DNA of 64,000 bases from Minisyncoccota bacterium (GCA_035385585.1 DAOOKJ010000002.1:595-64594); one strand, 5' to 3'. Shown: positions 2,770 to 60,936, counted from the first letter of the stretch. The notes: a model not told the origin generated them from the sequence alone. Numbers and translations: made by a program.

Positions 2770-2891
2770 AAATAAATCAAAATTCAAAACTCAAAAGTCA
2801 AAATTATAATTCAAAATTTAAATTCAAAATTTAAATTCAAAATGCAAAAGTAAAGATTTTAAAATTTAAACTTTTTACTTGTAATTTCTTA

Positions 2892-2965
2892 CCTGTCTAA
2901 ACCCCGCCCTTTTTGAAAAAAGAGCAGGATTTAGCAGGGTGAAACTTTTGAGTTTTGAATTTATA
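2892..2965. repeat. Imperfect palindromic element aaaccccgccc-tttttgaaaaaa-gagcaggattt, copy 1 of 3, followed by a conserved tail gtgaaacttttgagttttgaatt
   Basis: Copies at 12381..12450 and 53436..53480. Confidence 0.6.
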
Positions 2966-2970
2966 TTTTT

Positions 2971-3474
2971 ATGTGTTTTCATACAAAATACAAAATACAA
3001 AATACAAAATACAGATTCCGCGGCTTTACTCTTGTAGAACTTCTTATTGTTATTGGTATTACTGCTACAATGGCAACGGTTGGCATTGGTTATTATATGA
3101 ACCAGCAAAAAACTAAACTTTTAGAAACCACTGCTCAAGAGATTGTTAGTTATCTAAAATATGCCCAACAAAAATCAATCTCACAAGAACAGGGATTACA
3201 ATGGGGAGTCCATTTTGAAAACCCCTCTTCTGGTCAGGATTTTTACGCTCTTTATACTGGGACCACTTATTCTAATCCAATTGAAACAAAATATCTCCCA
3301 GAAGGAATAGAATTTTCTATACCCCAAACAGCAAGTTCAGTCGATATTTCGTTTTCCAAACTCACAGGCAAAAATTATAGTGGAACTAACCAATCTGTTA
3401 CCATTCTATCTACCTTTAATAATGCTACTACCACAATTACTGTTTCTTCTTTAGGATTAGTGACTTATCAATAA
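2971..3474 (+). CDS. Type IV pilin-like protein; 18-aa basic leader then G|FTLVELLIVIGI
   Basis: Class III signal: leader ending in G, Phe +1, Glu +5, hydrophobic helix; leader is encoded by a 4x AAAATAC heptanucleotide repeat. Confidence 0.75.
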   Translation: MCFHTKYKIQNTKYRFRGFTLVELLIVIGITATMATVGIGYYMNQQKTKLLETTAQEIVSYLKYAQQKSISQEQGLQWGVHFENPSSGQDFYALYTGTTYSNPIETKYLPEGIEFSIPQTASSVDISFSKLTGKNYSGTNQSVTILSTFNNATTTITVSSLGLVTYQ

Positions 3475-3522
3475 AGTAGCAATAACAATAATAAAATTTT
3501 ATCGTCTTGATCTATTTTTTTC

Positions 3523-3615
3523 ATGTTTTTCCATAGTCCCATTGACGAAGTCCGCATTTACAATCGGGTTCTTAGTCCCGCAGAAATTCAACAGCACTAT
3601 AACTCCAGACAATAA
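3523..3615 (+). pseudogene. Remnant C-terminal tail of a LamG (concanavalin A-like) domain, IDEVRIYNRVLSPAEIQQHY, in the same frame as the upstream pilin but cut off by two in-frame stops (TAA 3472, TGA 3508)
   Basis: Translation MFFHSPIDEVRIYNRVLSPAEIQQHYNSRQ matches the canonical LamG C-terminal DEVRIYNRALSxxEI motif; frame identical to ORF 2971..3474. Confidence 0.45.
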
Positions 3616-3721
3616 CTGACAGCAAAATTTCTAATTTTAAATTTCCAATTTTAAATTTTTAATTTTATAAATAAAAATAATTTCCTAAAAAATTTAGGCG
3701 GATAAAGTTGGTAATTAATTT

Positions 3722-4750
3722 GTGAAACACCAAATGCTCTTTACAAAATACAAAATACAAAATACAAAATACAGACTTTGTGGTCAATCTCTTTTAGAAC
3801 TTCTTTTATCCATTGCAGTCGGGACAATTTTAATTGGCGGGTCGGTGCTATTAATGACTACTTCTTTAAGAAGTTATCAATCAATAAAACAACGATTAAC
3901 TATTAATTCTTTATCTCGACAAGAAGCAGAGGTTATAATTTCCAAGGCTCAAGATAGTTGGCATAGTGTTTATGATTTAACAAGGGCAACAGATTATTAT
4001 ACTACTTCAACTAATAATGTTTGGAGTTTTAATTCTGGCAAAGAAGAATCCACAATTAATAATGTTTCTTATAGAAGATATTTCCAAGTGTTAGATGCTT
4101 TACGAGATGATTCAGGAAACATCGCTACTTCAGGAAATACTGACCCAAATACTTTAAAAATCAATGTTTTTTTGGAATACGGAATTAATTACAATTCTTC
4201 TTCCAGTTTAGTTTTTTATCTTACTCGTTCTTCTAATAATCAAGTTTTTCAACAGACAGACTGGTCTGAAGGACAGGGTCAAACTGGTCCTCTTCCTAAT
4301 CCCGGAAATAAATTTGATACTTCTACCAATATTAACTTCGCTTCAACAACCGGTTCTATTTATATGGCCACAACGACCATCGCGGCAGAATTAACTTCCT
4401 CTATTTTAGATACCGGTGTTGATGGAGGGGCTGGATTCAATTCGCTTCTTTGGCAAGGAAGCAAAGGAACTAATGGTTATGTTAAATTTCAGATTGCTTT
4501 TTCTAATTCTATTACTGGTCCTTGGACGTATTATGGTTGTACAACTATTCCTTCTTCTTGTTTGAATCCAAATAATTGGACAACTGCCAGCAGTTCTTTG
4601 GCTGCTTTAGAACCAAACACCTCCTTACCTTTGCCTTTTTATAGTACTCCTAGCCCTCAGAATAAACGTTATATTCGCTATAAAATTTTTCTTTCCACTT
4701 CTGGCACTTCTCCTCAAATAAATGATATAATAATAAACTGGAGCCCGTAG
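3722..4750 (+). CDS. Large pilin-like protein (prepilin-type N-terminus G|QSLLELLLSIAVG, Ser/Thr/Asn-rich body)
   Basis: Same KYKIQNTKY leader repeat as gene 2971; Glu +5; hydrophobic N-terminal helix. Confidence 0.65.
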   Translation: MKHQMLFTKYKIQNTKYRLCGQSLLELLLSIAVGTILIGGSVLLMTTSLRSYQSIKQRLTINSLSRQEAEVIISKAQDSWHSVYDLTRATDYYTTSTNNVWSFNSGKEESTINNVSYRRYFQVLDALRDDSGNIATSGNTDPNTLKINVFLEYGINYNSSSSLVFYLTRSSNNQVFQQTDWSEGQGQTGPLPNPGNKFDTSTNINFASTTGSIYMATTTIAAELTSSILDTGVDGGAGFNSLLWQGSKGTNGYVKFQIAFSNSITGPWTYYGCTTIPSSCLNPNNWTTASSSLAALEPNTSLPLPFYSTPSPQNKRYIRYKIFLSTSGTSPQINDIIINWSP

Positions 4751-30322: not shown

Positions 30323-31417
30323 GTGTCTTATTTGGTTTTATATCGCAAATATCGTCCCCAGTATTTTAAAGAAGTCATTAACCAAAAAAATGTTATTCTA
30401 ACCCTGGCTAATGCTCTAAAAGAAAGCAAAATTTCTCACGCCTATCTTTTTGCTGGCCCACGAGGTACGGGAAAAACAACCGTTGCCAGACTCTTGGCAA
30501 AAGCCTTAAATTGCAAGAATCGCCAGCAAAACGAATTTGAACCTTGTAATAATTGCGAATCTTGTTTAGCGATAAATAAAGGCAGTTCTCTGGATTTAAC
30601 AGAAATTGACGCTGCTTCAAACAGAGGGATTGAAGATATTCGGGCTTTAAAAGAAAATGTGAAATTTCCGCCAGTAAACTCAAATTACAAAATTTTTATT
30701 ATTGATGAAGCGCACCAGATTACCAGAGACGCTTTTAACGCCCTTCTGAAAACTTTAGAAGAACCGCCGCCATATATTGTTTTTATTTTAGCAACTACTG
30801 AACCGGAAAAATTACCCGCCACCATTTTGTCGCGGGTTGAACGTTATGATTTTAAAAAATTAAATTTAGTTGATATCATTGGTCGTTTGAAATATCTTTG
30901 CGAAAAAGAAAATATCAAATATGACGAAGAAGCTTTGAGATTGATTGCCTTGTATTCTGATGGGGGATTAAGAGATGCTGAATCTTTATTGGGGCAAATT
31001 TCCTTGATTACTTCAAACAACGTTACAAAAGAAAGCGTGGAAGAATTAACCGGCGCTATAAATTTAGAAAAAATTAAAAGGTTTATAGACAGTTTAATTA
31101 AGAAAAATAAAGAAAAAGCGATTGGTTTTATCAATGAAATTTACGACCAAGGCTACGAACTGGAAATTTTTAACAGTGAAGTAATCAACTATTTAAGAAA
31201 ACTTCTTTTATTAAAAATTTCACCGAGTTTGGCTTCAATTTTAGAAAAGGAAACCACTGATGAAGAGTTATCAATTCTTTTTAAACAAGCCCAACTAATA
31301 GAATTACCGTATTTAGAAAGATTACTCAAAAGATTAGTTGAGGTTCAGTATCAAATTAAACGCTCCCCAGTAAAAATTTTACCCCTGGAACTATTTATCA
31401 GCGAAGAATTGATTTAA
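30323..31417 (+). CDS. dnaX: DNA polymerase III gamma/tau subunit, short form
   Basis: GPRGTGKTT Walker A, CxxC zinc module, DEAH-like IDEAHQI, GTG start. Confidence 0.85.
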   Translation: MSYLVLYRKYRPQYFKEVINQKNVILTLANALKESKISHAYLFAGPRGTGKTTVARLLAKALNCKNRQQNEFEPCNNCESCLAINKGSSLDLTEIDAASNRGIEDIRALKENVKFPPVNSNYKIFIIDEAHQITRDAFNALLKTLEEPPPYIVFILATTEPEKLPATILSRVERYDFKKLNLVDIIGRLKYLCEKENIKYDEEALRLIALYSDGGLRDAESLLGQISLITSNNVTKESVEELTGAINLEKIKRFIDSLIKKNKEKAIGFINEIYDQGYELEIFNSEVINYLRKLLLLKISPSLASILEKETTDEELSILFKQAQLIELPYLERLLKRLVEVQYQIKRSPVKILPLELFISEELI

Positions 31418-31423
31418 TAAAAA

Positions 31424-31494
31424 TGCGGGGTAGTGTAACGGTAGCACGTCAGGCTCTGGACCTGAAAATTCTGGTTCGAATCCAGGCCCCGCAG
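31424..31494 (+). tRNA. tRNA-Gln (anticodon CUG)
   Basis: Manual fold: acceptor tgcgggg/ccccgca with U1:A72, anticodon stem tcagg/cctga, loop cuCUGga, T-arm tctgg-ttcgaat-ccagg, discriminator G; no encoded CCA. Confidence 0.7.
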
Positions 31495-31620
31495 CTACCC
31501 TCAGCCAAGGCTACAGAATAGGAAACTAATTTGAAAAATCTAACAATTTTTAATATAATTAAATAATGGTCGAAGATAGGTTTGTTCACCCCCGCGCAAT
31601 AAAATTAAATCAATAAAAAT

Positions 31621-32019
31621 ATGAAAGGATATTTTACTAATATAGAAAAAGATACTTTGGAAAATGAAAATTTTCGCAAAGTACTTTACACCGCCAAACA
31701 CTCTCAGTTGGTGTTAATGAGTCTAAAACCAAAAGAAGAAATCGGAATGGAGGTCCATCTTGAAAATGACCAATTCTTCCGTTTTGAAAAAGGAGAGGGG
31801 AGAGTAATTATTGACGGAAACGAATACCAAGTTTCCGATGGCTCGGCAATCGTAGTGCCAGCCGGTGCTCAGCATAACGTCATTAACCTGTCTGAAACCG
31901 ATAGTTTGAAACTATATACTATTTATTCTCCGGCTCATCACAAAGATGGAATTATTCGCAAAACAAAAGAAGAAGCAATATCCCAAGAAGCAGAATTTGA
32001 CGGAATAACAACAGAATAA
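31621..32019 (+). CDS. Cupin-domain protein
   Basis: 132 aa, double-stranded beta-helix pattern (VVPAGAQHNV). Confidence 0.55.
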   Translation: MKGYFTNIEKDTLENENFRKVLYTAKHSQLVLMSLKPKEEIGMEVHLENDQFFRFEKGEGRVIIDGNEYQVSDGSAIVVPAGAQHNVINLSETDSLKLYTIYSPAHHKDGIIRKTKEEAISQEAEFDGITTE

Positions 32020-32026
32020 ACAATTT

Positions 32027-32605
32027 ATGATTCTTTCTGACCGCGATATTCAAAAAGTAATTAAAGAAAAGAGATTGATTTTTAAGCCGGCTCTATCCAA
32101 AGACCAGATAGGGCCGGCTTCTATTGATTTAAAATTAGGCAGAATTTTTAAATCATTTAACATTTCAAAACAATCAATGTTGGACACAAAAAAAGGACTG
32201 CCAGACAAATCTTTTATTAGCACTCGGAAATTAAAAAACAATGAACCGTTTATCCTGCATCCAACAGATTTTGTTTTAGCCTCAACTAAAGAATATGTAA
32301 AAGTCAGCAACGACTTGGTCCTAAAAGTAGAAGGGAAAAGCACCTTGGCCAGAATGGGAATTTTGGTCCACACAGCTGGCTTTGTTGACCCGGGATTTGA
32401 AGGAACTTTAACTTTAGAAATTTCCAATCAGTCAAATTTACCAGTCGCCCTGTATCCAGAGATGTATATCTGTCAAATTGCCGTAGAACTTCTATCATCT
32501 CCTGCAGAAATACCTTATAATAAGCGAAAAAAGTCACTATATTCGAAATCCAAAGGACCAATAGAAAGTAAAACCCAAAACCTATTTGAAAAAAATAAAT
32601 TTTAG
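32027..32605 (+). CDS. dcd: dCTP deaminase
   Basis: MILSDRDI N-terminus, dUTPase-like fold, 192 aa. Confidence 0.75.
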   Translation: MILSDRDIQKVIKEKRLIFKPALSKDQIGPASIDLKLGRIFKSFNISKQSMLDTKKGLPDKSFISTRKLKNNEPFILHPTDFVLASTKEYVKVSNDLVLKVEGKSTLARMGILVHTAGFVDPGFEGTLTLEISNQSNLPVALYPEMYICQIAVELLSSPAEIPYNKRKKSLYSKSKGPIESKTQNLFEKNKF

Positions 32606-32654
32606 AGTAAAATGAGTAAAAGATAAGAAAAAATTTCAAATAATAATTAATCAT

Positions 32655-32726
32655 TCCGGGGTAGTTCAGCGGTAGAACGCCTGGCTGTTAACCAGGATGT
32701 CCGAGGTTCGAATCCTCGCCCCGGAG
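32655..32726 (+). tRNA. tRNA-Asn (anticodon GUU)
   Basis: Closely matches the bacterial tRNA-Asn pattern: acceptor tccgggg/ccccgga, anticodon arm cctgg-cuGUUaa-ccagg, T-loop ttcgaat, discriminator G; followed by hairpin terminator caccgt-atcaa-acggtg + T-run. Confidence 0.8.
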
Positions 32727-33098
32727 CACTGTAGAACACTTTGAGGCTTGAAGCACCGTATCAAACGGTGTTTTCATTTTAAACATTAGCTTTTCATCCT
32801 TTCACCTCTGTTCGTGCACACTGAATCCATCTATTGAACGAAACCCGAACCTATTTTAGAGAAAATCCCGACGCCGACTTTTAGTTGCCAGCCCGCCGAT
32901 GGCGGGTTGACAACTAAACCCGTCGGCTCGCGGGCAAAAAATTTCTTCACCTAAAACTCCTTTATTCTTTGCCCGCTCGCCGAAATTTCAGCCATTGCCC
33001 GCAAAGCAAGCGTAGATTTTTATTCAATGGATAGTACTATTCCAATTTGGCATATTCTATTATGGAATATATCATAAAGGCAGAGGTAATGTCAAATT

Positions 33099-33320
33099 AT
33101 GAGTAAAACAATTTATTCAAAAGAACATAGGCATATCATTGAGCAATTAAAAAAAGCCCGTGAAGAGGCTAATTTATCGCAGGAAGAAGTCGCCAAAATT
33201 CTCGGTAAAACCCAATCTTATATTTCAAAAATTGAATCGGGGCAGCGAAAGATTGACGTTATTCAGTTAAAAGAATTTGCAAAAATTTACAAGAAAAATT
33301 TAGATTTTTTCTTAAAATAA
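33099..33320 (+). CDS. XRE-family HTH regulator, size and context of a restriction-modification controller (C) protein
   Basis: 73 aa, LSQEEVAKILGKTQSYISKIESGQRKI helix-turn-helix; palindromes (tgga-TAGTACTA-ttcca) in its upstream region. Confidence 0.6.
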   Translation: MSKTIYSKEHRHIIEQLKKAREEANLSQEEVAKILGKTQSYISKIESGQRKIDVIQLKEFAKIYKKNLDFFLK

Positions 33321-33323
33321 ATT

Positions 33324-33863
33324 ATGCACATAAACGAAGTAAAAACAGCAATTAAAGTCGGTGATTTCGTATTAAGAAAAGGGAGTAAAAACAAAATCAG
33401 TTTCCAGTACTCACCAAATCTTAATAAAAAAACGCTTTCCGATGACTCCGCAAGAATATATTTAATTACTCAAGACGGAATCATTAAGAAAATAGGTGGT
33501 TCAATTCAGACAGGAGGAATTAAGGGTACTATCAGTTTTTATATCGGCGCGATGACAGGAAGTCCCGGTAGGCCAAGATTTATTGTTCATTTGCTTATTG
33601 AAAAAGCTCTTAAAAGTGGTTCAAAAGTGGCTTTATATATGATTACTTCACCAAAAACATCAGCCAAAGTTAGTGGTCTATTTGAAACTAAGAAAATGAA
33701 GATCGCTAGTTTCAAAGAAATGGAGGATTTATGTAAATTTGATTACTATTCTAAAGAAAAGAAATATCCTGATTGGAACTTTCAAGAGAATCATCAACCA
33801 TATCCTCCCGAATTAGAAAGGAAGTTTATGGCTTATCACCGGAAGCGTTTGAGTAAGAAGTAA
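33324..33863 (+). CDS. Hypothetical protein; candidate type II restriction endonuclease on positional grounds only
   Basis: 179 aa, 4 bp downstream of the C-like gene, stop abuts the stop of the convergent methyltransferase; possible D...ExK (QDG...LIEKA). Confidence 0.3.
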   Translation: MHINEVKTAIKVGDFVLRKGSKNKISFQYSPNLNKKTLSDDSARIYLITQDGIIKKIGGSIQTGGIKGTISFYIGAMTGSPGRPRFIVHLLIEKALKSGSKVALYMITSPKTSAKVSGLFETKKMKIASFKEMEDLCKFDYYSKEKKYPDWNFQENHQPYPPELERKFMAYHRKRLSKK

Positions 33864-35405
33864 TTATTTTCTTGGTGGACCATAGATTATTATTTCGTGA
33901 GACTCTTTTACATATTTACCATTGCCATTTTTCTTTCTGTTTAGTCCTATTCTTGTTTCTCCTTGCCCCATAGTATATTGCCAACTTGGGAAAAATTGTT
34001 GAAAGTCTTTGTAATATTCTGTTATTGTTGGACAATTATTGTAGGAAAGAATAAATCCTCCTTTGTGATTTTTTAGTAAATCTCGCAGAACCTCGTGGGG
34101 AAATCCATTGTGATGAACTGGAATATTTCTCATTGGGTAAATACCTTTAAACATTTTTGAATCTTTTCCGATATAATAAGGTGGATCGCAGTAGAGAAAA
34201 TCATTGGGATATTTGGGTATTACATCTCGGAAATCTGCACATTCTACTTTTAAGTTCCCTGGTTTAAAATCTCGGATTTTCTCTATCATACTCCTATATC
34301 TTTTATCATTTAGGTAAATTTCTGATGACCAACCCATAAATCCAGGCCCATAAGAGAGGTTAAAGTTGTAGACAAAATAAACAGCCAAAGTAAGGGGATC
34401 TAGTTTTACTTTTTTCTCCCAAACATCTCTTAAAATCAACCTTATTTTTTCAAAGGTTGTTTTATTTGGTTTTAGTTCTTTCAGTTTTTCGTAGAGTAGT
34501 TTCGGCTTTTCTATTTGAAATTTCCAGTAATTGCATAGAATATCAAAAATATCAAATCCGATAACTTCTAATCCCAACTCTTTAGTCATGGCTATTTCAA
34601 TTGAACCCCCTCCAAAAAATGGAGAAATAACTCTTTTTATATTATCCGGTAATAATTCAATAACGTGCCCAACTGCCAAAGTTTTCCCTCCGGCGTATCT
34701 TATAGGAGAAAGAGCAACTCTTTTGTATTTATTTTGACTATTTAGATTTTTACTTCTTATGTGGTTCAAAAACATTTTCTTTTTGTAAGCGAGTGTTTTA
34801 TCTTGAGGAAAGTTTTCCAAATTTCTTATGATTTTAACAACTACGCCCCGTACCTCAACTTCTCTACGATAGATCGGCAGCATAGCTTGATTTGCCGGCT
34901 GTAACCTTATACGATTTTTCTCTCTATAAAGTTTCTTAAGAGTGGCTTCGTTATCGTCGATAATAGCCACCACCGTTTGGCCGTCATCGGCGGTTTCTTG
35001 CTTGCGAATTACAACAATATCGCCATCAAATATACCATCATTAATCATACTATCGCCCTGAACACGCAGGGCATAATATTTCTCATTTGGTCTTATTTCT
35101 TTTTTGGATATAGTAACTTTAGAATCAGACACTTCTATTGCTTCTATAGGTTGACCTGCAGCAATAGTCCCTACGATAGGAATTTTTACAATTTCATCAC
35201 GCTTTGTAGTATCAATAGCGCACGGTTTATTTTCTTCTTTTTCCAGATATCCTAAGTCGCGAAGTTTTGAAACATGAAAGTGAGCCGTTGAGACAGAAGA
35301 AAGCCGGAAATGTTTTGTTATTTCTTCCAAAGAGGGGGCATATCCCTTTTTGTCGGTAAAAGATTTTATAAAGTCTAAAACTTGTTTTTGACGTTTTGTC
35401 AGCAT
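33864..35405 (-). CDS. In-frame fusion: complete LexA repressor (winged-helix, Ala-Gly cleavage site, S24 Ser/Lys peptidase) + Dam-family (D12 class) N6-adenine DNA methyltransferase
   Basis: N-terminal region aligns with LexA (MLTKRQKQVLDFI...; VGTIAAGQPIEA; RVQGDSM...VVIRK); C-terminal region carries RYAGGK, PFFGGGS and DPPY Dam motifs. Confidence 0.75.
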   Translation of the reverse strand: MLTKRQKQVLDFIKSFTDKKGYAPSLEEITKHFRLSSVSTAHFHVSKLRDLGYLEKEENKPCAIDTTKRDEIVKIPIVGTIAAGQPIEAIEVSDSKVTISKKEIRPNEKYYALRVQGDSMINDGIFDGDIVVIRKQETADDGQTVVAIIDDNEATLKKLYREKNRIRLQPANQAMLPIYRREVEVRGVVVKIIRNLENFPQDKTLAYKKKMFLNHIRSKNLNSQNKYKRVALSPIRYAGGKTLAVGHVIELLPDNIKRVISPFFGGGSIEIAMTKELGLEVIGFDIFDILCNYWKFQIEKPKLLYEKLKELKPNKTTFEKIRLILRDVWEKKVKLDPLTLAVYFVYNFNLSYGPGFMGWSSEIYLNDKRYRSMIEKIRDFKPGNLKVECADFRDVIPKYPNDFLYCDPPYYIGKDSKMFKGIYPMRNIPVHHNGFPHEVLRDLLKNHKGGFILSYNNCPTITEYYKDFQQFFPSWQYTMGQGETRIGLNRKKNGNGKYVKESHEIIIYGPPRK

Positions 35406-35443
35406 ACTCTTTAACTTTCGATTTATTTTCGATTACACTTTAA

Positions 35444-35471
35444 TTATAGGGAACATACCAGTCAATGTCAA
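35444..35471 (-). promoter_or_regulatory. Consensus sigma70 promoter (TTGACA-17-TATAAT on the minus strand) driving the LexA-methyltransferase gene
   Basis: Minus-strand reading cttgTTGACAttgactggtatgttcccTATAATtaaag. Confidence 0.5.
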
Positions 35472-35670
35472 CAAGTTTAGTTATCCACAGAGGGATAAAA
35501 AGCTATTGGATTTCGTAGGGTTTTCAGGATTCAACCTCACTAATCCGAAAAACAATATTCTTTTACAAGAATCGGTCGAATTGTAATTGTTTAAAGGATT
35601 AATTGTTGTTTGAAATACAACAACCTGAAATATTATTAATTAAGAACCCTGTAGGTTTGGATTAGATACC

Positions 35671-36054
35671 ATGTTTATGATACAGAAACTGAATCTCATC
35701 TGGAATGGTTATTATTCATATAATGATAGTTCCGTTGAGAGAAACGTACCTGAAAGTGCAGGCGTATACAAAATAAGTGTTTCTCAACAAGATAAAACAT
35801 TAAAAGTTCATTACGTTGGCCAAGCAGAAAACCTAAGAAAAAGATTAAAAGAACACCTCGATACTAGTAATGAACAAAATGAATGTCTTGTAGAACACAT
35901 TGAAAAATATGCCTGTAGTTATAGTTTTGCATTAGTTTCAAGACAGGAAGATAGGGATGCTGCAGAGAGAGCATTGTACATTCATTACAAACCGGAATGC
36001 AATGATCCCGATGCTATTCCTAACGTGCCTGATGTAGAAATTAATCCAAACTAA
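35671..36054 (+). CDS. Small GIY-YIG nuclease-domain protein, divergent from the LexA-methyltransferase gene
   Basis: GVYKI...YVGQAENLRKRLKEH matches GIY-YIG motifs. Confidence 0.55.
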   Translation: MFMIQKLNLIWNGYYSYNDSSVERNVPESAGVYKISVSQQDKTLKVHYVGQAENLRKRLKEHLDTSNEQNECLVEHIEKYACSYSFALVSRQEDRDAAERALYIHYKPECNDPDAIPNVPDVEINPN

Positions 36055-36057
36055 GGT

Positions 36058-36098
36058 AGCGGACGCTATCTGAAAAGATAGCGTCCGCTCTTTTCTTT
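36058..36098 (+). terminator. Rho-independent terminator
   Basis: Perfect 13-bp stem agcggacgctatc/gatagcgtccgct plus T-run. Confidence 0.7.
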
Positions 36099-36254
36099 AT
36101 CTTAACATAAAAGTATGTCAGAAACATCATCACATAAAAGAGTGAAAGGACACGCAGCCGGTAAAAGTGGCGAAACAGAAAAGAAAATTAAATACGGTGG
36201 ACGCATTGATGTTTTTATTTTATTTCACGCAGATTCTAATGTGATTCAGGGCAC

Positions 36255-36345
36255 GGAGCCGTGCACCACGTAGGGTGCACGGCCATGAACCCAGCGTGGT
36301 TTATGGCTAATTTCAAAAAGCCTCTATTTATGAGGCTTTTTTATT
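36255..36345 (+). repeat. Two-hairpin structured element (ccgtgcacc-acgta-gggtgcacgg; ccatgaaccca-gcg-tggtttatgg) followed by its own terminator hairpin; copy 1 of 2
   Basis: Second near-identical copy at 37018..37102; the two copies flank gene 36397..36936. Confidence 0.6.
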
Positions 36346-36396
36346 TCTCTGGACACGTGTGGTATAATAGATAATTAAATAATATCCTATATATCT

Positions 36397-36936
36397 ATGT
36401 CTAAAAAAATAATCATTCCAATAATAGTAGTTATGGTGGGAGGATATTTAGTTTATCACCCTCCAAAAGGAATCAAGCAATCAACGGAAACGCAGAAGTT
36501 TACTCTAGATGCTAAAAATTGCACTTATCTCATTGAAGGTCAGAATATTACTTTAATAAATGGATATTCAGAAGAAGAAATTGCTTCTGGCTCTGCCTCA
36601 AAAATAATTACTAAATATTTTGGTAATGAGGCAGCAGGAGATTTTAATAACGATGGTTTTTCTGATGTAGCCTTTCTTTTAACGCAGGAGACTGGTGGGA
36701 GTGGTACTTTCTTCTATGTAGCAGTTGCCTTAGGGAGTGAGAATAAATGTCTTGGCACTAATGCTATTTTTCTTGGCGACCGAATTGCTCCCCAAACAAT
36801 CAATTTTCAAAATGGCGAAATAATTGTCAACTATGCAGATAGAAATCCAGACGAACCAATGACGGCATCTCCGTCAGTTGGGGTCTCAAAATACTTTCAT
36901 ATAAACGAAGGTCAGTTAGTTGAAATTCAAAAATAA
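36397..36936 (+). CDS. Secreted/membrane-anchored hypothetical protein
   Basis: N-terminal TM/signal IIIPIIVVMVGGYLV; extended -10 promoter tgtggtataat at about 36355. Confidence 0.5.
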   Translation: MSKKIIIPIIVVMVGGYLVYHPPKGIKQSTETQKFTLDAKNCTYLIEGQNITLINGYSEEEIASGSASKIITKYFGNEAAGDFNNDGFSDVAFLLTQETGGSGTFFYVAVALGSENKCLGTNAIFLGDRIAPQTINFQNGEIIVNYADRNPDEPMTASPSVGVSKYFHINEGQLVEIQK

Positions 36937-37017
36937 AATTATAGTTGAGGAGATAAGTCAGGAATGAAAATTGCTTTTCTGTTCGTGATAAACCAGCTTA
37001 TGACTGCCTAAACCCCT

Positions 37018-37102
37018 GTGAGCCGTGCACCACGTAGGGTGCACGGGCCATGAACCCAACGTGGTTTATGGCTTTTTAAAATCGCCCAAAAGGCGATTTT
37101 TT
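37018..37102 (+). repeat. Copy 2 of the two-hairpin element plus terminator hairpin (aaaatcgcccaaaaggcgatttttt)
   Basis: About 90% identical to 36255..36308 over ~55 nt. Confidence 0.6.
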
Positions 37103-37406
37103 GATATAATAGGAATTCAAATGTTTTTTTGATAGATTTTGCCGCTTCTGGAAAGTTTTCCACCTTATTTTTTTGAGTAAAAAATGATACTCTATACTTA
37201 ATATGCAGTTTGAAGAGTTACTTAATCTTTATAAAGAAAAGAAAAAGCCATACAGTAAGATAAAACTAAGAAAACAATGAAATAGTCCCAATTTAAGAAA
37301 ATTCTTAAAAATTCAATAGTCAAAATGTCAAAAGTCAATGGAATGACTAAAATTTAATATGGAGGATAAAAAATATGGACGAGCAGATGACAACATAAAT
37401 TTCTCC

Positions 37407-39848
37407 TTAATTTTGTTCGCCAAAATTTATTCCATAAACTAAACACCAACCTTTACTTTGTTTTCCACTTATTCTCGCTTGTCCTTCAAGAATAGGGGAG
37501 TAATGATTAGGAACTAATTGAGCAATAGCGGCTATCCGGGCAACTAAATCATATTCCTTTATCCAACCTAAAACAGTATTTTTTAGTTGGGTAAAAATCT
37601 CCTTCGCCTTTTGATCATTAACTAAACTTGAACCAAATTCGAGCCGCAAAACTTTCAAATTTTTATCGAAAACACTGGTAACTAATTTCTCTTTTTGAGC
37701 TGTATCGAATTCTCGTAACTTAATAGTATGTGGTAACATCTGTAAAATCAATTGGCCATCGCTGGTAGCTATTAATGACCAAACACAATGCTCATCATTA
37801 AATTCTGGATTAAGCTTATTTTTAGGAAAAGCGCCAATTAAAACTTCTGTAACTTGGCTTCCTTCTATTGGTTCAATTAGTCTATCATAGGGACTGATTC
37901 CGTTTTTATCTTTCTTAAATAAATTTTTTATTTCCTCAAGGGAGGAAATTGCTATCCATCTTCCTCTGCCGGGTAAGTCTGGATGAATACAGGTACGAAT
38001 CGAAGCGTCGTAACCATCATTAATATTTTTTTCAAGTCTCATTATTATTTCTTTAACTTTATTAGGTAACATTATTGAATAGTTTTCCCTTATTTCTGCG
38101 GGAATTAATGCATTTACAATAGTTGTCTCTTTTGCTTTAGAAGACTTAAATAAACTAATCTTTTTCGCTTTTTCCTTTTCAGCGGCTATAAATTGAGCAA
38201 CCTTTTCTATTCCCTTTCTATCTAAAATCCAATACCAAGGGTTTCGCTTTCGCTCTTCTGACCACCTTTTTACTATTTGTCTTTCGTCTTGGGTTAACAT
38301 TGCATTTTTTTCTTCCAGTGGTATCAAACCTCTAAATACTCTTACTTTTTCTCTTCCGATTACTTCTACAGTACAAATCTTTTCAGCAATTTCAGCAGGC
38401 GCCTCAGGAGCACCTATAATAACTGGGATGTTAAATCGCTGAAGCGCTCTTGTCAGATGAGAACCTAGGCTACCGGTAGAAGTAATAATGGCTTTTAACA
38501 AAGAAGAACATTGAAGAAGTTCGGAAGTATCGTCTAAACTTAAAGGACCCCAATAAATGATTTCGTTTCTATCACCCTCTAGATCTTTTAAAGAAGTAAT
38601 CACTCGGTAGCCATGAGCAACACCCGGAGAGATTCCCCACCCTCCTCGGCACAAAACCCCTCCCTCTTTTTCAGCTTTTTGCGCCTCTATTTCATTTAGA
38701 GATGGTTGCAAGAGTTGCTGCAACTCAGAAGCAGTTATCTGTGATATTGCTTCTTTTTCAGAAAGTAGCCCTTTTTTTATTTGCTCAATAAGAAATCTTA
38801 GTTTCGCCAAAGGCGAAAGGGGAAGTTCCCGCAATTGTAAACACCATACAGTATCGCCATCATAAGAAAACTCAAGCTCCTGAGGAAGAGCACAATGCTC
38901 AATAATGGTACCAAAAATTTCTTCTAATTGACTTTTTATTGGAGAATTTGGAAGCTCAGCAAGAGGTTGTGATTCCCGCGTCTCATCACCAACAACAGCC
39001 CTTCCTTGCTTTCCAGGAGCATAAATAATCAAAGGACCCCCAATCAAATCAGATGGATCGTGGGTAAGTAAAACACCAGCGCCAGCCTTTTCAGCATCTC
39101 GATTGGTAAAAATCATTTGTTGGATGATACAAGCCGTACCCCAGTCTTTGGGAATTCCTAATTCTTCCCGCCATCTTCTTGTTCCTTTACTCCCCCAAGA
39201 GCCAAAAACAATTTTAATTCCCTTTAATATCTGTTGATCAATATCCTGAGGAAATTCCTCTCCTGATTCTCTTTTAAAAATCTTTTTTGCTTCAAAAATC
39301 AACGACTCCAATCCAGCTTCATCGGTTTTAGAAGATCTATTAACTAAATCATTAAATTTCTCAGAACCAATTCCCCAAAAACAGCCTAAATTTATAATTA
39401 GATCAAGATAAGATTCATAAGCTCCTCTTACACCAATTTCATTTTTTAAAGTATTTATTGTGTTGTCATTAATCCCAACATTAAGAAGAGTCAACATTAC
39501 CCCGGCCATTGATACTGGTGGACTAGAGCGAATAGAGATAAAAAGAGGTTTTTCTCTATCATTAAAACGTCGGCCGGTTTTTTCCTCTAACCTTCTTAAT
39601 TCCCTCCTAATAATTTCTAAGAAGTTTTCCTCATTCTTTCTTAATGCCCACCAGCCATCTGTGGTGATAATAAATCCTGTTGGTACAGACAGATTCCACG
39701 ATACCATCAATCTTAACTGATATCCTTTATTTCCAAGAAAAAAACAAGCATCTTTATCAGATTCTGGAAAATAACCATCAAGAGGACAACAAATAGAAGA
39801 AGAACAATCTTCAGATGATTCCCTTTCTCTCTTACAATCATCATTCAT
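37407..39848 (-). CDS. PEP-utilising enzyme family protein: PPDK-type N-terminal ATP-grasp domain + phosphohistidine swivel domain + ~290-aa C-terminal domain of unknown type
   Basis: VPTGFIITTDGW PPDK_N signature; TSTGSLGSHLTRALQRFNIPVIIG mobile-domain signature; C-terminus does not look like the usual TIM-barrel PEP-binding domain. Confidence 0.6.
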   Translation of the reverse strand: MNDDCKRERESSEDCSSSICCPLDGYFPESDKDACFFLGNKGYQLRLMVSWNLSVPTGFIITTDGWWALRKNEENFLEIIRRELRRLEEKTGRRFNDREKPLFISIRSSPPVSMAGVMLTLLNVGINDNTINTLKNEIGVRGAYESYLDLIINLGCFWGIGSEKFNDLVNRSSKTDEAGLESLIFEAKKIFKRESGEEFPQDIDQQILKGIKIVFGSWGSKGTRRWREELGIPKDWGTACIIQQMIFTNRDAEKAGAGVLLTHDPSDLIGGPLIIYAPGKQGRAVVGDETRESQPLAELPNSPIKSQLEEIFGTIIEHCALPQELEFSYDGDTVWCLQLRELPLSPLAKLRFLIEQIKKGLLSEKEAISQITASELQQLLQPSLNEIEAQKAEKEGGVLCRGGWGISPGVAHGYRVITSLKDLEGDRNEIIYWGPLSLDDTSELLQCSSLLKAIITSTGSLGSHLTRALQRFNIPVIIGAPEAPAEIAEKICTVEVIGREKVRVFRGLIPLEEKNAMLTQDERQIVKRWSEERKRNPWYWILDRKGIEKVAQFIAAEKEKAKKISLFKSSKAKETTIVNALIPAEIRENYSIMLPNKVKEIIMRLEKNINDGYDASIRTCIHPDLPGRGRWIAISSLEEIKNLFKKDKNGISPYDRLIEPIEGSQVTEVLIGAFPKNKLNPEFNDEHCVWSLIATSDGQLILQMLPHTIKLREFDTAQKEKLVTSVFDKNLKVLRLEFGSSLVNDQKAKEIFTQLKNTVLGWIKEYDLVARIAAIAQLVPNHYSPILEGQARISGKQSKGWCLVYGINFGEQN

Positions 39849-57219: not shown

Positions 57220-59736
57220 ATGGAGGATGAAATAATTATTAAAGGAGCAAGAGTTCATAATCTAAAAAATATCAACTTAAGGTTGCCAAAAAATAAGTTG
57301 ATTGTTTTTAGCGGTGTATCTGGAAGCGGCAAGTCTTCTTTGGCTTTTGATACTATTTTTGCTGAAGGCCAGCGTCGTTATTTGGAATCTTTATCTCCTT
57401 ATGCGAGACAATTTTTGGGTCAAATGGACAAACCAGATGTTGATGAAATTTTGGGCCTTTCGCCGGCAATCGCCATTGACCAAAAAGCCCTTTCCCACAA
57501 TCCTCGCTCAACTGTCGGCACTCTAACAGAAATCTACGATTATTTAAGAGTGCTTTTTGCCAGAATGGGAGAAGTATTTTGTCCTTTATGCGGAGAGAAA
57601 ATTCAAAAACTCTCTTTAGATGAAATGACAGACATTATTAAAGAAAAGGCGAAAAGCGTAAAAAATAAAACTGTTACCGTTCTTTCACCTGTTATTCGCG
57701 GCAGGAAAGGGGAGTATTATCAAATGCTTTATGACTTTCTATCATTAGGTTATTCATTTGCTTACATTGATTCAAAAAAATATTCTCTTCATGATAAAAT
57801 TGAACTGTCGCGTTATAAAAATCACACTATTGAAATTGTCATTGACACTGTCTCAATTGACGATGAATCGCGACTTTTTGAAGCAATAGAAAACGCGGTA
57901 AATTATAGCAAAGGTTTGGTGAAAGTAACTTTTGAAAAAGAAAAACCGCCTCAGAAAATAAAAGAAACTCTTCTTTTATCAAGCCTCTGGACTTGTCCCG
58001 AAGATAATTTTGCTTTTCCCGAAGTTGAACCACGCCTTTTTTCCTTTAACAGTCCTTATGGCGCCTGTCCTGCTTGCCATGGTTTGGGAAAAGAAGATAT
58101 TTTTACCAATGAAATCTGCCCAGTTTGCAAAGGAAAAAGATTAAAGCCAGAAGCTTTAGTCGTAAAAATCAATGGCAAGAATATTTGTGAATTAACCAAC
58201 TTATCAATTGACCAACTCTATTTATTTTTTAATAAATACGAAGCAAATTTAAAAGAAAAAGAAAAAATTATTTCTGCTGATTTAATTAAAACGATTAAAG
58301 AAAGATTAAAATTTTTAAGCGAAGTCGGGCTTTCTTATTTAAGTTTAAACCGGGAAGCAGAAACGCTTTCTGGCGGAGAAGCCCAAAGAATCAGATTGGC
58401 TTCCCAAATTGGCTCTCAACTTTCAAATGCTCTATATGTTTTGGACGAGCCAACAATAGGCCTTCATGAAAGAGATACTGACAAATTAATTAAAATTTTA
58501 GAAACTCTTAAAAAAAGAAACAATACTATTATTGTCGTTGAACACGATGAAAAAACAATTTATTCTTCGGATTATTTAGTAGATTTGGGGCCGGGAGCAG
58601 GAATTGAAGGCGGTTATATTACGGCAAGCGGTAAAACAGAAGAATTAATCGAAAACGAAAAGAAATACCAATCTTTAACTTTAGATTATTTAAGGGATAA
58701 AAGAACAGTCTTTGTTCAGAATCCTTTAAGGGGGCAATTGACAGAGAAACTTAAAATAATCGGCGCCAAGGCGAATAATTTAAAAAATATTAACGTTGAA
58801 ATTCCTTTAAGAAAATTAGTAGTTGTCACTGGCGTTTCTGGCAGCGGAAAATCATCTTTAATTTATGATGTCTTGTATAAAAATCTTGTTAATCTTATTT
58901 ATCGCCTTCCTCAGGATTTAAAAAATGTTTCAAAAATTTTAGGCAGTGAATACTTAGACAGGGTAGTAATGGTTACTCAGGCGCCGATTGGCCGAACTCC
59001 GCGTTCAAATCCCGCTACTTATACGGGAATTTTTACTCCAATTCGCGAATTTTACGCTTCTTTGGAAGAAGCCAGACAAAGAGGCTATCATGCCTCACGA
59101 TTTTCATTTAATGTTAAAGGCGGCCGTTGCGAAGCCTGCGAAGGAGCAGGCTACAAATTAATTGAAATGCATTTCCTGCCGCCTATTCTGGTGGAATGTG
59201 AAGTTTGCCACGGAAAAAGATTTAATCGGGAAACCTTACAAGTAAAATATCAGGGAAAAAATATTAGCGAAGTGTTAGAGTTAACAGTAGAGGAAGCGCT
59301 TAAATTTTTTGAAGGAATTTATCCTATTACCGAAAAATTACAAGTTTTGAAAGAAGTCGGCTTGGGTTACATTAAATTGGGACAATCAGCCACTACTCTT
59401 TCTGGCGGAGAAGCCCAAAGAATTAAATTGGCGCGCGAACTTACCCATCCATTAGGAAGAAGAGTGCTTTATCTTTTAGATGAACCGACAGTCGGTCTTC
59501 ATTACTATGACATAGAAATGCTTCTCAAAGTTTTAATAAAATTGATTGAAAAAGGAAATTCAGTAGTTATGATTGAGCATAATATGCATGTAATTAAATG
59601 CGCGGATTATATTGTTGATTTGGGACCAGAGGGCGGTGAAAAAGGAGGAAAATTAATTATTGAAGGAACTCCCCAGGAGATTGTAAAGACAAAAAACTCT
59701 TATACTGGTCAGTATCTGAAACATTACTTAAAATAA
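57220..59736 (+). CDS. uvrA: Excinuclease ABC subunit A
   Basis: Two ABC ATPase modules (GVSGSGKSS x2) and zinc fingers. Confidence 0.9.
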   Translation: MEDEIIIKGARVHNLKNINLRLPKNKLIVFSGVSGSGKSSLAFDTIFAEGQRRYLESLSPYARQFLGQMDKPDVDEILGLSPAIAIDQKALSHNPRSTVGTLTEIYDYLRVLFARMGEVFCPLCGEKIQKLSLDEMTDIIKEKAKSVKNKTVTVLSPVIRGRKGEYYQMLYDFLSLGYSFAYIDSKKYSLHDKIELSRYKNHTIEIVIDTVSIDDESRLFEAIENAVNYSKGLVKVTFEKEKPPQKIKETLLLSSLWTCPEDNFAFPEVEPRLFSFNSPYGACPACHGLGKEDIFTNEICPVCKGKRLKPEALVVKINGKNICELTNLSIDQLYLFFNKYEANLKEKEKIISADLIKTIKERLKFLSEVGLSYLSLNREAETLSGGEAQRIRLASQIGSQLSNALYVLDEPTIGLHERDTDKLIKILETLKKRNNTIIVVEHDEKTIYSSDYLVDLGPGAGIEGGYITASGKTEELIENEKKYQSLTLDYLRDKRTVFVQNPLRGQLTEKLKIIGAKANNLKNINVEIPLRKLVVVTGVSGSGKSSLIYDVLYKNLVNLIYRLPQDLKNVSKILGSEYLDRVVMVTQAPIGRTPRSNPATYTGIFTPIREFYASLEEARQRGYHASRFSFNVKGGRCEACEGAGYKLIEMHFLPPILVECEVCHGKRFNRETLQVKYQGKNISEVLELTVEEALKFFEGIYPITEKLQVLKEVGLGYIKLGQSATTLSGGEAQRIKLARELTHPLGRRVLYLLDEPTVGLHYYDIEMLLKVLIKLIEKGNSVVMIEHNMHVIKCADYIVDLGPEGGEKGGKLIIEGTPQEIVKTKNSYTGQYLKHYLK

Positions 59737-59742
59737 TTTCTT

Positions 59743-60936
59743 ATGGCATCTCTCAAAGAACAAGTTAAAAAATTTCCAAAATCAAGCGGCGTTTATCTCT
59801 TTTTGGATAAAAACGGCAAAGTGCTATACGTCGGCCGGGCAACCTCTTTAAGAAAAAGAGTTCTAAATTACTTTGAAAAAGGATTGGAGCCAAGAATTTC
59901 TGAAATGGTCGGACTGGCGAAAAAGGTCAACTGTATTAAAACTAACAACCTTTTAGAGGCAGTAATTTTAGAAGCAAATTTAATCAAAAAATATTGGCCA
60001 AAATATAATATTAAAGAAAAAGACAACCGCTCTTTTATTTATCTGGTGATTTCTAAAAAAGACTTTACTTATCCAATTATTGCCAGAGGCCAGGAACTAA
60101 AAAAATTTCCGGCGGAAAAAGCGGAAATCTTCGGCCCTTATCAAAGTTTAACTATCGTTAATAATGCTTTAAAAATTTTGCGGCGTTTTTTCCCTTATAG
60201 CACCTGTAAAATTAATTCTGGCAAACCTTGTTTTAATTACCAAATAGGACTCTGTCCCGGCGCCTGTATTGGCGCCATCTCAAAAGAAGATTATCAAAAA
60301 AACATAAATAATTTGATTCTCTTTTTAAAAGGCGAAAATAAAAAACTTTTTAAAATTATTGCCAAAGAAAATCCGGAAAAACTGAAAGCATTAAAGCATA
60401 TTCAGGACGCGGCTTTAATTTCAAAAGAAGATTATTATTTAAAGCAAAACCTTTATCGGATTGAAGGCTATGACATTTCTTATTTTCAAGGGAAAATTCC
60501 TTATGGTTCAATGGCAGTTTTTATAAATTCAAAAAAATCGCCTTCTGACTATCGAATTTTTAAAATCAAAGAGGCGCAGCCAAAAAATGACCTAGAGGCT
60601 TTAGCCGAAGTTATCAGAAGAAGATTGAAACATTCGGAATGGAGATTGCCGGATTTAATTGTGATTGACGGCGGGAAACCTCAAGTAGATTATTTGTCAA
60701 AACTATTTAAACAATTACAAGTAAAAATTCCTTTTGTTGGGATTTCAAAATACCGAAACGACAAGTCCCACAACTTTTCTGCGAGAAGTCAGGACAAGTT
60801 TGTTTTTCCAAAAAATACAAAGACCACGGTTAAAAATTTAATTGAAAGTCAAAAAAACACTTTGCTAAAGGTGCGAGATGAAGCCCATCGTTTTGCGCTA
60901 AAATTTTCCAGAAAAACCATTAACTTGAAAAAATGA
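59743..60936 (+). CDS. uvrC: Excinuclease ABC subunit C, short form (GIY-YIG + UvrBC-interacting region; C-terminal HhH region absent)
   Basis: GVYLFLDKNGKVLYVGRATSLRKRV GIY-YIG motif; only 397 aa. Confidence 0.7.
   Translation: MASLKEQVKKFPKSSGVYLFLDKNGKVLYVGRATSLRKRVLNYFEKGLEPRISEMVGLAKKVNCIKTNNLLEAVILEANLIKKYWPKYNIKEKDNRSFIYLVISKKDFTYPIIARGQELKKFPAEKAEIFGPYQSLTIVNNALKILRRFFPYSTCKINSGKPCFNYQIGLCPGACIGAISKEDYQKNINNLILFLKGENKKLFKIIAKENPEKLKALKHIQDAALISKEDYYLKQNLYRIEGYDISYFQGKIPYGSMAVFINSKKSPSDYRIFKIKEAQPKNDLEALAEVIRRRLKHSEWRLPDLIVIDGGKPQVDYLSKLFKQLQVKIPFVGISKYRNDKSHNFSARSQDKFVFPKNTKTTVKNLIESQKNTLLKVRDEAHRFALKFSRKTINLKK

Follow-up and report, generated by a model that had tools for sequence, protein, structure and literature searches.

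Why should a complete SOS repressor stand at the head of a DNA methyltransferase? The question is raised by a locus in a 64,000-nt stretch of DNA from a Minisyncoccota bacterium (GCA_035385585.1, DAOOKJ010000002.1:595-64594; hereafter the window, with positions counted from its first nucleotide), in which a LexA repressor continues in frame into a D12-class adenine methyltransferase and the gene of a candidate GIY-YIG restriction endonuclease converges on the fused gene. The reading we favor, and consider moderately probable, is that of a type II restriction-modification (R-M) module whose D12 methylase carries a complete LexA as its N-terminal regulatory domain, giving an autorepressed, SOS-inducible methylase.

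A complete LexA joined in frame to a D12-class methyltransferase

The fusion gene and its parts are as follows:

33864..35405, minus strand: LexA-methyltransferase fusion gene, 513 amino acids (aa) (open reading frame (ORF), three Pfam domains, TIGR00498, at least 120 full-length homologous clusters)
35223..35402, minus strand: LexA winged-helix DNA-binding domain, residues 2-61 (Pfam PF01726 LexA_DNA_bind, 5.6e-16)
35154..35159, minus strand: Ala83-Gly84 autocleavage-site codons GCA GGT (direct reading of the sequence)
34836..35180, minus strand: S24 peptidase and dimerization domain, residues 76-190 (Pfam PF00717 Peptidase_S24, 1.3e-30)
35049-35051, minus strand: Ser119, in GDSM of the S24 domain (nucleophile)
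34935-34937, minus strand: Lys157, in EATLKKLY of the S24 domain (general base)
33969..34697, minus strand: D12-class (alpha) N6-adenine DNA methyltransferase domain, residues 237-479 (Pfam PF02086 MethyltransfD12)
34176-34187, minus strand: methyltransferase motif IV DPPY codons (direct reading of the sequence)

An initial annotation of the window had described a complete LexA joined in frame to a Dam-family methyltransferase, and this description held: the gene is a single 513-aa ORF with no internal stops, and a domain search of its two halves returned LexA_DNA_bind and Peptidase_S24, then MethyltransfD12, as that annotation had anticipated. The N-terminal 196 residues score 187.5 bits against the NCBIfam lexA equivalog TIGR00498 (cut-off 110.95). 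The LexA part (residues 2-196) aligns over its full length with the structure of Thermotoga maritima LexA (3k2z, 2.7e-35) and end to end with E. coli LexA structures (about 1e-23); its recognition helix is SVSTAHFHVSKL. By every sequence criterion that could be tested, the DNA-binding part is a bona fide LexA. The methylase part matches the whole MethyltransfD12 profile (positions 1-253 of 253, 1.4e-31) and the PADLOC MTase_II model PDLC03281 (1.3e-112), has DpnM as a relative in the PDB (1.3e-7), and presents motif I (PFFGGGS) and motif IV (DPPY) in the alpha order, both invariant.

The residues needed for self-cleavage are strictly kept. The Ala-Gly site is found in all 23 aligned fusions of the D12 family, in which the residues preceding the scissile bond (..IAA) are likewise conserved, and the Ser and Lys of the dyad are invariant in 51 diverse fusion representatives and in all mapped LexA sequences. 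Taken together, the Ala-Gly pair, the Ser of GDSM and the Lys of TLKK are invariant in more than 100 fused or related sequences spanning less than 50% identity, and RecA-triggered self-cleavage would therefore be expected. The catalytic lysine had been assigned to VVIRK; alignment places it instead at Lys157 in EATLKKLY, which corresponds to E. coli K156 ('VTVKRL'), the VVIRK lysine corresponding to E. coli K135. An AlphaFold2 (AF2) model of the whole fusion was of low confidence (predicted local distance difference test score, pLDDT, 68) and was not used for inference.

The fusion is widespread among Patescibacteria

In a collection of 5.8 billion proteins, with clusters counted at the 90% identity level, at least 120 clusters are 73-93% identical to the fusion over its full length, each with all three domains, and they originate from independent JGI, ENA, NCBI and Logan assemblies. 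Because so many three-domain clusters recur across independent assemblies in one continuous frame, the fusion is neither a chance nor an assembly product, and the frameshift that the initial annotation had named as a possible refutation was not found. The same domain pair was also sought in other genomes, where the fused form is present in 27 GTDB species (one genome per species searched), mostly Patescibacteria lineages and otherwise unclassified bins; lineage labels include Giovannoni-, Gribaldo-, Sungii-, Yanofsky-, Kuenen- and Portnoybacteria and Paceibacterota. The architecture is thus common in metagenome protein databases, as had been considered, and its annotation there is generic. Clusters are named 'DNA adenine methylase', 'transcriptional repressor LexA' or 'Type II adenine specific DNA methyltransferase [Candidatus Wolfebacteria]', and the label given to such fusions by the Prokaryotic Genome Annotation Pipeline (PGAP) is 'transcriptional repressor LexA'. 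No description of a LexA-methylase architecture was found in the searchable literature, in agreement with the earlier impression that it is undescribed.

The junction of the two halves is conserved across the D12 family (...VVVKIIRNL-ENxxQDN-TLAYKKK...), and the sequence past it aligns with the natural N-terminus of unfused methylase homologs. Both points argue for a single fusion event in this family and not for repeated frameshifts. No LexA remnants were found upstream of the unfused archaeal methylases, whose N-termini begin at the equivalent of about residue 200. A match spanning both halves was absent from 72,556 PLSDB plasmids, 50,697 GenBank phages and IMG/VR. Strain variants lacking the module were also not found, since all 16 contigs with an identical dcd neighbor show the same arrangement or end within it. 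Among related loci compared with the window (given L-numbers such as L012, L020 and L025), same-strain assemblies were seen to break just past the nuclease gene (L177) or just past dcd/tRNA-Asn (L178), which may reflect population heterogeneity at the locus.

The methylase is paired with a GIY-YIG nuclease

The gene convergent with the fusion is:

33324..33863, plus strand: restriction endonuclease candidate with a GIY-YIG fold (T4 EndoII / R.Hpy188I type), 179 aa

The coordinates confirm that a 73-aa helix-turn-helix (HTH) gene and this 179-aa gene converge on the fusion, with the two stops abutting at 33863/33864. The 179-aa protein matched no Pfam, NCBIfam or PADLOC model, and a sequence profile of its family gave only chance-level matches against the PDB, with no similarity to any solved GIY-YIG enzyme. 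Structure comparison assigns it a GIY-YIG fold resembling T4 EndoII and R.Hpy188I, and so replaces the PD-(D/E)xK fold that had been suggested for it. Residues invariant in the family, and candidates for a catalytic role, are R44, Y46, K56, I57, G58, R85, E132, E134 and N152, and the invariant stretches include RIY (44-46) and KIG (56-58).

The pairing is conserved. Genes of the 179-aa family abut a methylase gene in about 50 loci, and in the fusion loci the convergent gene (179-181 aa) always lies 3' of the fusion, with abutting or overlapping stops, on contigs with quite different flanks. Placing the fusion in an R-M module, as first proposed, is borne out by this association. The orientation is convergent in bacteria of the Candidate Phyla Radiation (CPR) and in archaea, and tandem in Helicobacter. 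Elsewhere, the methylase part by itself (residues ~200-513) is an ordinary gene beside the same nuclease family. LexA-free methylases with 70-79% identity occur in DPANN archaea, Microgenomates, a Dehalococcoidales bin and a Pelagibacteraceae bin (L028-L053), from similar habitats and with nucleases of 42-65% identity, a distribution suggesting that the R-M unit was recently transferred horizontally between domains. In Helicobacter and Campylobacter the methylase is 52-57% identical and a nuclease homolog (30-39%) lies directly downstream; for the H. pylori pair, also without LexA, the identities are 55% (methylase) and 35% (nuclease). Since the pair exists without LexA, methylase and GIY-YIG nuclease form an R-M unit in their own right. 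From these comparisons, LexA has been added to this R-M unit in Patescibacteria, and fusion plus nuclease make up a mobile two-gene module that turns up in many different Patescibacteria contexts. Separately, T4-like cyanophages (Synechococcus phages Sf-CH11 and S-SCSM2R; matches H16-H18) encode a methylase 46-51% identical to that of the fusion adjoining an annotated GIY-YIG nuclease, a pairing that recalls the structural resemblance between the 179-aa protein and T4 EndoII.

Several palindromic 4-mers are depleted in the window (observed/expected: GATC 0.31, AGCT 0.38, CATG 0.46, GGCC 0.47, TCGA 0.49), as would follow from exposure of the genome to many R-M systems. Two of them, GATC and CATG, are sites that D12 methylases typically modify, and their depletion gives a weak hint that does not identify the specificity. 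A transfer of specificity from the H. pylori homolog (HUP-B14, beside typA, 55% identity) was tried and rejected, as TCNNGA belongs to a gamma-class and ACNGT to an N4-methylcytosine (m4C) enzyme; an assigned motif for HP0481 was not found in the literature examined.

A predicted LexA operator at the fusion's own promoter

The upstream region of the fusion gene holds three elements:

35443..35471, minus strand: fusion-gene promoter, TTGACA (35471)-17-TATAAT (35443), 12 of 12 consensus positions
35416..35433, plus strand: predicted LexA operator, direct repeat TTTCGAT-N4-TTTCGAT with an 11-bp period, between the -10 element and the start codon
35481..35489, minus strand: consensus DnaA-box 9-mer (TGTGGATAA / TTATCCACA), lying 10 bp ahead of the -35 element and occurring once in the window

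The consensus promoter had been noticed before, and all 12 positions do match; the same layout is found at the related loci L097, L100 and L127. An alignment of the 130-nt upstream segments of 23 fusion genes (that of the window and those of 22 loci) brought out two conserved elements, namely a direct repeat (unit xTTCNNN, 11-bp period) and a DnaA-box 9-mer. In the window the repeat (TTTCGATTTATTTTCGAT) covers transcript positions from about +3 to about +20. Nearly every homologous fusion has an equivalent repeat upstream, which at other loci overlaps the -10 element or the spacer. There is only one exact copy of TTTCGAT-N4-TTTCGAT in the 64 kb, and in 24 sequences checked the operator type of each locus was unique to the fusion promoter, save at L020, where a second copy lies over the -10 element of a divergent GIY-YIG gene.

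The repeat unit varies from locus to locus, and both of its copies change in concert, tracking the LexA recognition helix (aligned with E. coli S39-L50). The following counts come from 64 promoter/protein pairs, other methylase classes included, and share ancestry:

Helix ..TAHF/YH..: repeat unit TTC(T/G)A(T/A), 23/23
Helix ..T(V/I)HQH..: repeat unit TTCGGT, 20/20
Helix ..T(V/I)HEH..: repeat units TTCGGG / TTCGGT / TTCGGA, 7 / 5 / 1
Helix ..TVHHH..: repeat unit TTCTA(A/G), 3/3
Helix ..TVHKH..: repeat unit TTCGC(T/C), 2/2

Identical helix-operator pairs recur with differing methylase classes. Direct-repeat LexA boxes of this spacing (GTTC-N7-GTTC) are an established class in Alphaproteobacteria (PMC8565304). 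The covariation with the helix and this precedent are the grounds on which we take the direct repeat to be the LexA operator, and hence the fusion to be a probable repressor of its own promoter. Autorepression through the predicted operator is strongly supported by this comparative evidence, in line with the autoregulation that had been suggested for the LexA part.

Two other operator candidates were discarded. A GTTGTT-N8-AACAAC palindrome had been singled out at 35605-35624; it is present, and as an operator it did not stand, because it sits in a stretch not shared with related loci, whose flanks differ, and the conserved elements lie at 35416-35433 and 35481-35489. A Gram-positive GAAC-N4-GTTC box in the promoter spacer proved absent on reading the sequence. 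Of 67 fusion promoters, 51 contain a perfect DnaA box and 58 contain one when a single mismatch is allowed (loci L001-L175), over a background of 0.011 per 130 nt in 0.99 Mb. Most often the box starts one repeat period (exactly 11 bp) ahead of the first repeat, which suggests a second input from the replication initiator in the form of co-regulation by DnaA.

LexA heads occur on many classes of methylase

An exhaustive HMMER search with the LexA part alone, over 1.84 billion cluster representatives, gave 498 matches at E <= 1e-30. The roughly 60 closest LexA representatives at the 50% identity level (45-76% identity) are mostly 270-890 aa long with LexA at the N-terminus; such long proteins make up 52 of the best 150 matches, and ordinary LexAs of ~200 aa predominate only below about 48% identity. 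When 51 long representatives were scanned with Pfam, every one contained both LexA domains and at least 45 also contained an N6_N4, Eco57I/N6_Mtase, D12 or C5 methylase domain. The C-terminal domains of these 51 were:

N6_N4_Mtase: 31
Eco57I: 7
N6_Mtase: 5
MmeI_Mtase: 4
MethyltransfD12: 4
C5 DNA_methylase: 3
TaqI_C: 2

About 45 further fusions were found in a metagenome scan. An ORF of 118-352 aa lies within 400 bp of the 3' end in 36 of the 39 complete ones and is convergent in 33 of those, most partners abutting or overlapping that end. Four of ten partners scanned scored above Pfam cut-offs, as RE_TaqI, RE_Bsp6I, RE_BsaWI and MvaI_BcnI. A shared cassette, TTGAC(A/G/T)-17-TATA(A/C)T-~8-AATCGAAA-N3-AATCGAAAG, precedes the D12 methylase of the window, beta-class methylases (L097, L100), the L127 gene and unfused lexA genes in higher-GC organisms. 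The promoter-operator-LexA cassette is joined to at least four methyltransferase classes (alpha, beta, gamma and C5), and the design is general.

One Portnoybacteria contig (L025, PFWG01000025) holds two different fusions within 4.5 kb, a D12 fusion at 99-1460 and a 617-aa gamma-class (NPPY) fusion at 2410-4263. The 950 bp that separate them contain a 264-aa gene, and the second fusion has its own operator type, TTTCGCT-N4-TTTCGCT, matching its helix TVHKH. Unfused lexA genes overlapping the start of a methylase gene, in an operon, were found at L145 (280-2003), L149 (152-2391), L156 (1726-4599) and L184 (715-3204), with one or two methylases (beta, gamma, C5, or D12 plus beta) and the same operator layout. 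These operons, some of which come from higher-GC organisms that do not belong to the CPR, probably represent intermediate stages in the evolution of the fusions. We also observed a second stand-alone LexA of the Patescibacteria type, with a Cys-Gly site (IACG), at L094 (1-1501) and L146 (2492-4318), in both cases followed by a conserved gene of ~270-280 aa; at L094 it is divergent from a beta-class methylase and has a TTCGG-N6-TTCGG repeat over its -10 element.

Proposed mechanism

In the mechanism that we propose, the LexA winged helix would bind TTTCGAT-N4-TTTCGAT at the transcription start of its own strong promoter, as covariation indicates, and with LexA on its own promoter's repeat the methylase would therefore repress its own synthesis. 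The convergent GIY-YIG nuclease would be the restriction enzyme, with a C-protein-type controller of its own in the window copy. On entry into a new cell the promoter would be free, so that methylase would accumulate first, and at steady state methylase would be kept low. Upon DNA damage, activated RecA would trigger self-cleavage at A83-G84 and part the DNA-binding domain from the S24-methylase portion, vacating the operator and raising methylase synthesis; the invariance of the cleavage site and of the Ser/Lys dyad is what makes such SOS coupling plausible. The ..IAA C-terminus that cleavage would leave resembles the ..VAA end that targets the E. coli LexA fragment to ClpXP. Nothing like a terminator was detected between the convergent genes, and so, speculatively, read-through from the methylase promoter, once derepressed, might dampen the nuclease gene through transcriptional interference. 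In sum, the module would be protected quickly when it enters a new host, and a damaged or under-methylated chromosome would be spared attack by its own nuclease, a type II form of 'restriction alleviation'. The DnaA box beside the operator may add a coupling to replication.

Alternative explanations

The main competitor to this proposal, rather unlikely in our view and still a serious one, is that the fusion serves the organism as its own SOS master repressor, perhaps the only one, and has picked up an R-M methylase at the 3' end of its gene. On this view the methylase would ride on an autoregulated, damage-inducible lexA promoter, and the R-M system would be hard to lose because its deletion removes LexA. 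The fusion does pass the TIGR00498 equivalog cut-off and receives the PGAP name of a LexA, no second lexA was found within the 64-kb window, and unfused lexA-methylase operons exist. Fused and unfused forms also share a layout characteristic of a host SOS locus, in which a small GIY-YIG gene and lexA are divergent, and at L020 that GIY-YIG gene has its own operator copy. Against this, the two different fusions of L025 argue for system-specific controllers, and the D12-family junction is conserved while the flanks differ, so that the fused gene would seem to move as a unit. Operator specificities have diversified, as those of R-M controller proteins do, the uvrA and uvrC genes in the window have no operator, and a second lexA could lie beyond the 64 kb.

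It is improbable, we think, that the LexA part serves as a DNA-binding and dimerization module only, giving constitutive and damage-insensitive autorepression of the methylase like the N-terminal HTH of the SsoII type. An operator at the promoter is explained by autoregulation alone, and S24 domains also dimerize, which would suit a methylase with a palindromic target; yet the invariance of the catalytic residues in more than 100 sequences would be unexpected were cleavage dispensable, and the ..IAA ahead of the scissile bond is also kept. Much less probable still is a role of LexA in tethering the methylase to chromosomal sites for local epigenetic marking of LexA-bound promoters in place of genome-wide protection, an idea that the initial annotation had raised. 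A sequence-specific DNA binder is indeed physically linked to a methylase here, whereas the 64 kb contain a single operator copy, which lies at the promoter of the fusion gene itself, the stand-alone methylases (70-79% identical) work with the same nuclease family, a restriction partner needs genome-wide protection, and the same N-terminal cassette is found on many unrelated methylase classes. As for an artifact, be it a frameshift, a chimera made in assembly or the loss of a stop codon that had separated neighboring lexA and methylase genes, the unfused operons with overlapping stop and start show how one indel could mimic a fusion; we give it almost no credence given at least 120 clusters with the same frame and junction from independent assemblies and sequencing projects, and the conserved junction residues.

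The reading of the fusion as an SOS-inducible R-M methylase has its own weak points. We infer DNA binding, autocleavage, methylation and restriction alike from sequence, the covariation counts are not phylogenetically independent, and the fusion may simply be the cell's LexA. An operator that, in the DNA sampled, was found only at the gene's own promoter fits a dedicated autoregulator and is uninformative on SOS signaling. The low-confidence AF2 model is likewise uninformative on whether the methylase hinders LexA dimerization or cleavage. LexA-type repeats were not found upstream of the nuclease genes, and any effect on restriction would therefore be indirect. A broader version of the proposal, which we regard as doubtful, is that in Patescibacteria and some neighbors the SOS switch and R-M have merged into one circuit, the fusions being the only LexA in at least some genomes. 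The portable promoter-operator-LexA cassette, often accompanied by a DnaA box and a divergent gene for a small GIY-YIG nuclease, would on this view have been fused again and again to methyltransferases of many classes. If this were true, damage response, replication status and self/non-self marking would fall under one self-cleaving protein, and loss of R-M would be loss of SOS control.

Relation to known systems

R-M systems must balance methylase against nuclease, and they are known to do so by means of C proteins, antisense RNAs or a small HTH at the N-terminus of the methylase. In methylases of the M.SsoII, M.EcoRII and M.MspI type, an N-terminal DNA-binding region represses the enzyme's own promoter. 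The fusion resembles these in having a DNA-binding domain N-terminal on the methylase and, by prediction, an operator in its own promoter and autorepression within an R-M system. It is not a member of that family, however, as it has a complete LexA (winged helix plus intact S24) and not an XRE-type HTH, its predicted operator is a direct repeat with an 11-bp period, and its cassette occurs on alpha, beta, gamma and C5 methylases. Having a complete LexA with intact S24 catalytic residues, it would therefore have a damage-responsive switch built in. The C-protein systems (C.PvuII, C.AhdI, C.BclI, C.Esp1396I) are matched in the window by the 73-aa HTH gene upstream of the nuclease, with an inverted repeat over its promoter, and LexA cassettes, like C proteins, fall into operator-specificity groups; the conserved regulator of the fusion family, in contrast, is the LexA domain on the methylase.

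With the S24 repressors (LexA, lambda CI, SetR of SXT) the fusion shares the full LexA domain set and a predicted operator at its own promoter, and its LexA, like CI and SetR, appears to travel with a mobile unit. Unlike them, it bears a DNA methyltransferase of roughly 310 aa at the C-terminus, and unlike LexA it has no regulon beyond its own promoter detected in the DNA sampled, except the divergent small GIY-YIG gene in some relatives. Among the GIY-YIG enzymes (R.Hpy188I, R.Eco29kI, EndoII), the 179-aa protein is similar in fold to EndoII and R.Hpy188I, without detectable sequence similarity to the solved members. DNA-damage-responsive control of defense systems is known from CapH/CapP of the cyclic-oligonucleotide-based antiphage signaling systems (CBASS) and from the WYL/BrxR regulators. 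ClpXP-dependent restriction alleviation is a further case, in type I R-M systems, and restriction alleviation is a subject of PMC4231737 and PMC11109961. These three cases resemble the proposed mechanism in that defense is retuned on DNA damage or on unmodified self DNA, and differ from it in that the sensor of the fusion would be RecA-LexA self-cleavage inside a type II methylase, and the predicted response would be more modification and not more attack.

The fusion is thus of a known kind, that of transcriptionally self-regulated R-M methylases, with the SOS signal implied as a new input. The new element is a complete self-cleaving SOS repressor as a portable regulatory head on many methylase classes. 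A methylase with LexA built in would add a different logic, in which modification normally holds itself down and is raised by the RecA signal that accompanies cutting or repair of the chromosome, and its effect would be a type II counterpart of type I restriction alleviation. The recurrence of the head with many unrelated methylases means that these systems probably switch the protective methylase on upon DNA damage. CPR bacteria reportedly depend heavily on R-M and not on CRISPR, and the architecture bears on both defense and genome integrity in these ultra-small cells. The helix-operator covariation is also a natural experiment on LexA specificity, in which two helix positions map to bases 5-7 of the repeat unit. 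For annotation, hundreds of proteins currently named just 'LexA' or 'DNA adenine methylase' are flagged.

Neighboring genes and the upstream region

Further features around the fusion and nuclease genes are:

35671..36054, plus strand: small stand-alone GIY-YIG protein, 127 aa, divergent from the fusion (Pfam GIY-YIG 25.4 bits, cut-off 22.6)
33099..33320, plus strand: C-protein-like XRE HTH regulator, 73 aa (HTH_3 1.4e-17), just upstream of the nuclease gene
33038..33075, plus strand: putative C-box and promoter of the XRE-nuclease operon (inverted repeat overlapping TTGGCA-17-TATCAT)
31424-31495: tRNA-Gln
32655-32727: tRNA-Asn

The small GIY-YIG gene divergent from the fusion, as originally described, was confirmed by Pfam. 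Homologs of it are divergent from LexA or LexA-methylase genes at L156 (1297-1653), L183 (4001-4381) and L184 (3281-3637)/L185, and a second family of small GIY-YIG proteins is likewise divergent at L020 (2572-2853), L103 (2122-2406) and L107. The two families (93-127 aa) together occur at no fewer than seven independent loci, regardless of methylase class. The 127-aa protein of the window is likely an accessory or LexA-regulon gene product, and the small GIY-YIG proteins may be a Cho-like SOS nuclease or a third component of the module. At L020, the operator copy at the divergent GIY-YIG gene argues that the fused LexA regulates at least one other gene. Further along the window (57220-60936), a uvrB-like ORF is succeeded by uvrA (838 aa) and uvrC (397 aa) with next to no spacing. 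No LexA-type direct repeat was found near uvrA/uvrC in the window, apart from a near-match at 58648 inside uvrA.

The XRE protein is weakly similar to C proteins (PADLOC Control_protein 3e-8, C.BclI 8e-6, C.AhdI 8e-4). Its gene is present in only 3 of ~50 nuclease-bearing loci (the window, L012 and L040) and on this comparison looks to be an optional third part of the module, so the classic C-R / M layout seen by the initial annotation fits the window copy and not the family. The gap between XRE stop and the next ATG measures 3 nt, not the 4 bp given earlier. Of the palindromes reported upstream of this gene, TAGTACTA is present at 33032-33039, and the conserved element is instead the inverted repeat TATTCCA-N18-TGGAATA at 33038-33069; ahead of its XRE gene, L040 has almost the same C-box region sequence and L012 a related one.

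The tRNA-Gln and tRNA-Asn genes lie upstream of the locus, as had been noted, and an Rfam scan of 31000-37500 returned these two tRNAs and nothing else. Horizontal acquisition had been proposed from an atypical composition, which was not recovered (GC 0.31-0.41, versus 0.29-0.41 in the surrounding 14 kb), while mobility of the module finds support in its differing flanks elsewhere. The 300-nt spacer between tRNA-Asn and the XRE gene (32728-33030, plus strand), which has no Rfam match, is GC-richer (0.40-0.41) and contains inverted repeats at 32880-32897/32901-32918 and 32923-32942/32964-32983. It folds at -85 kcal/mol, far better than shuffled sequences (z = -4.76), and might be the scar of an integration event, a group of terminators or an RNA of unknown type.

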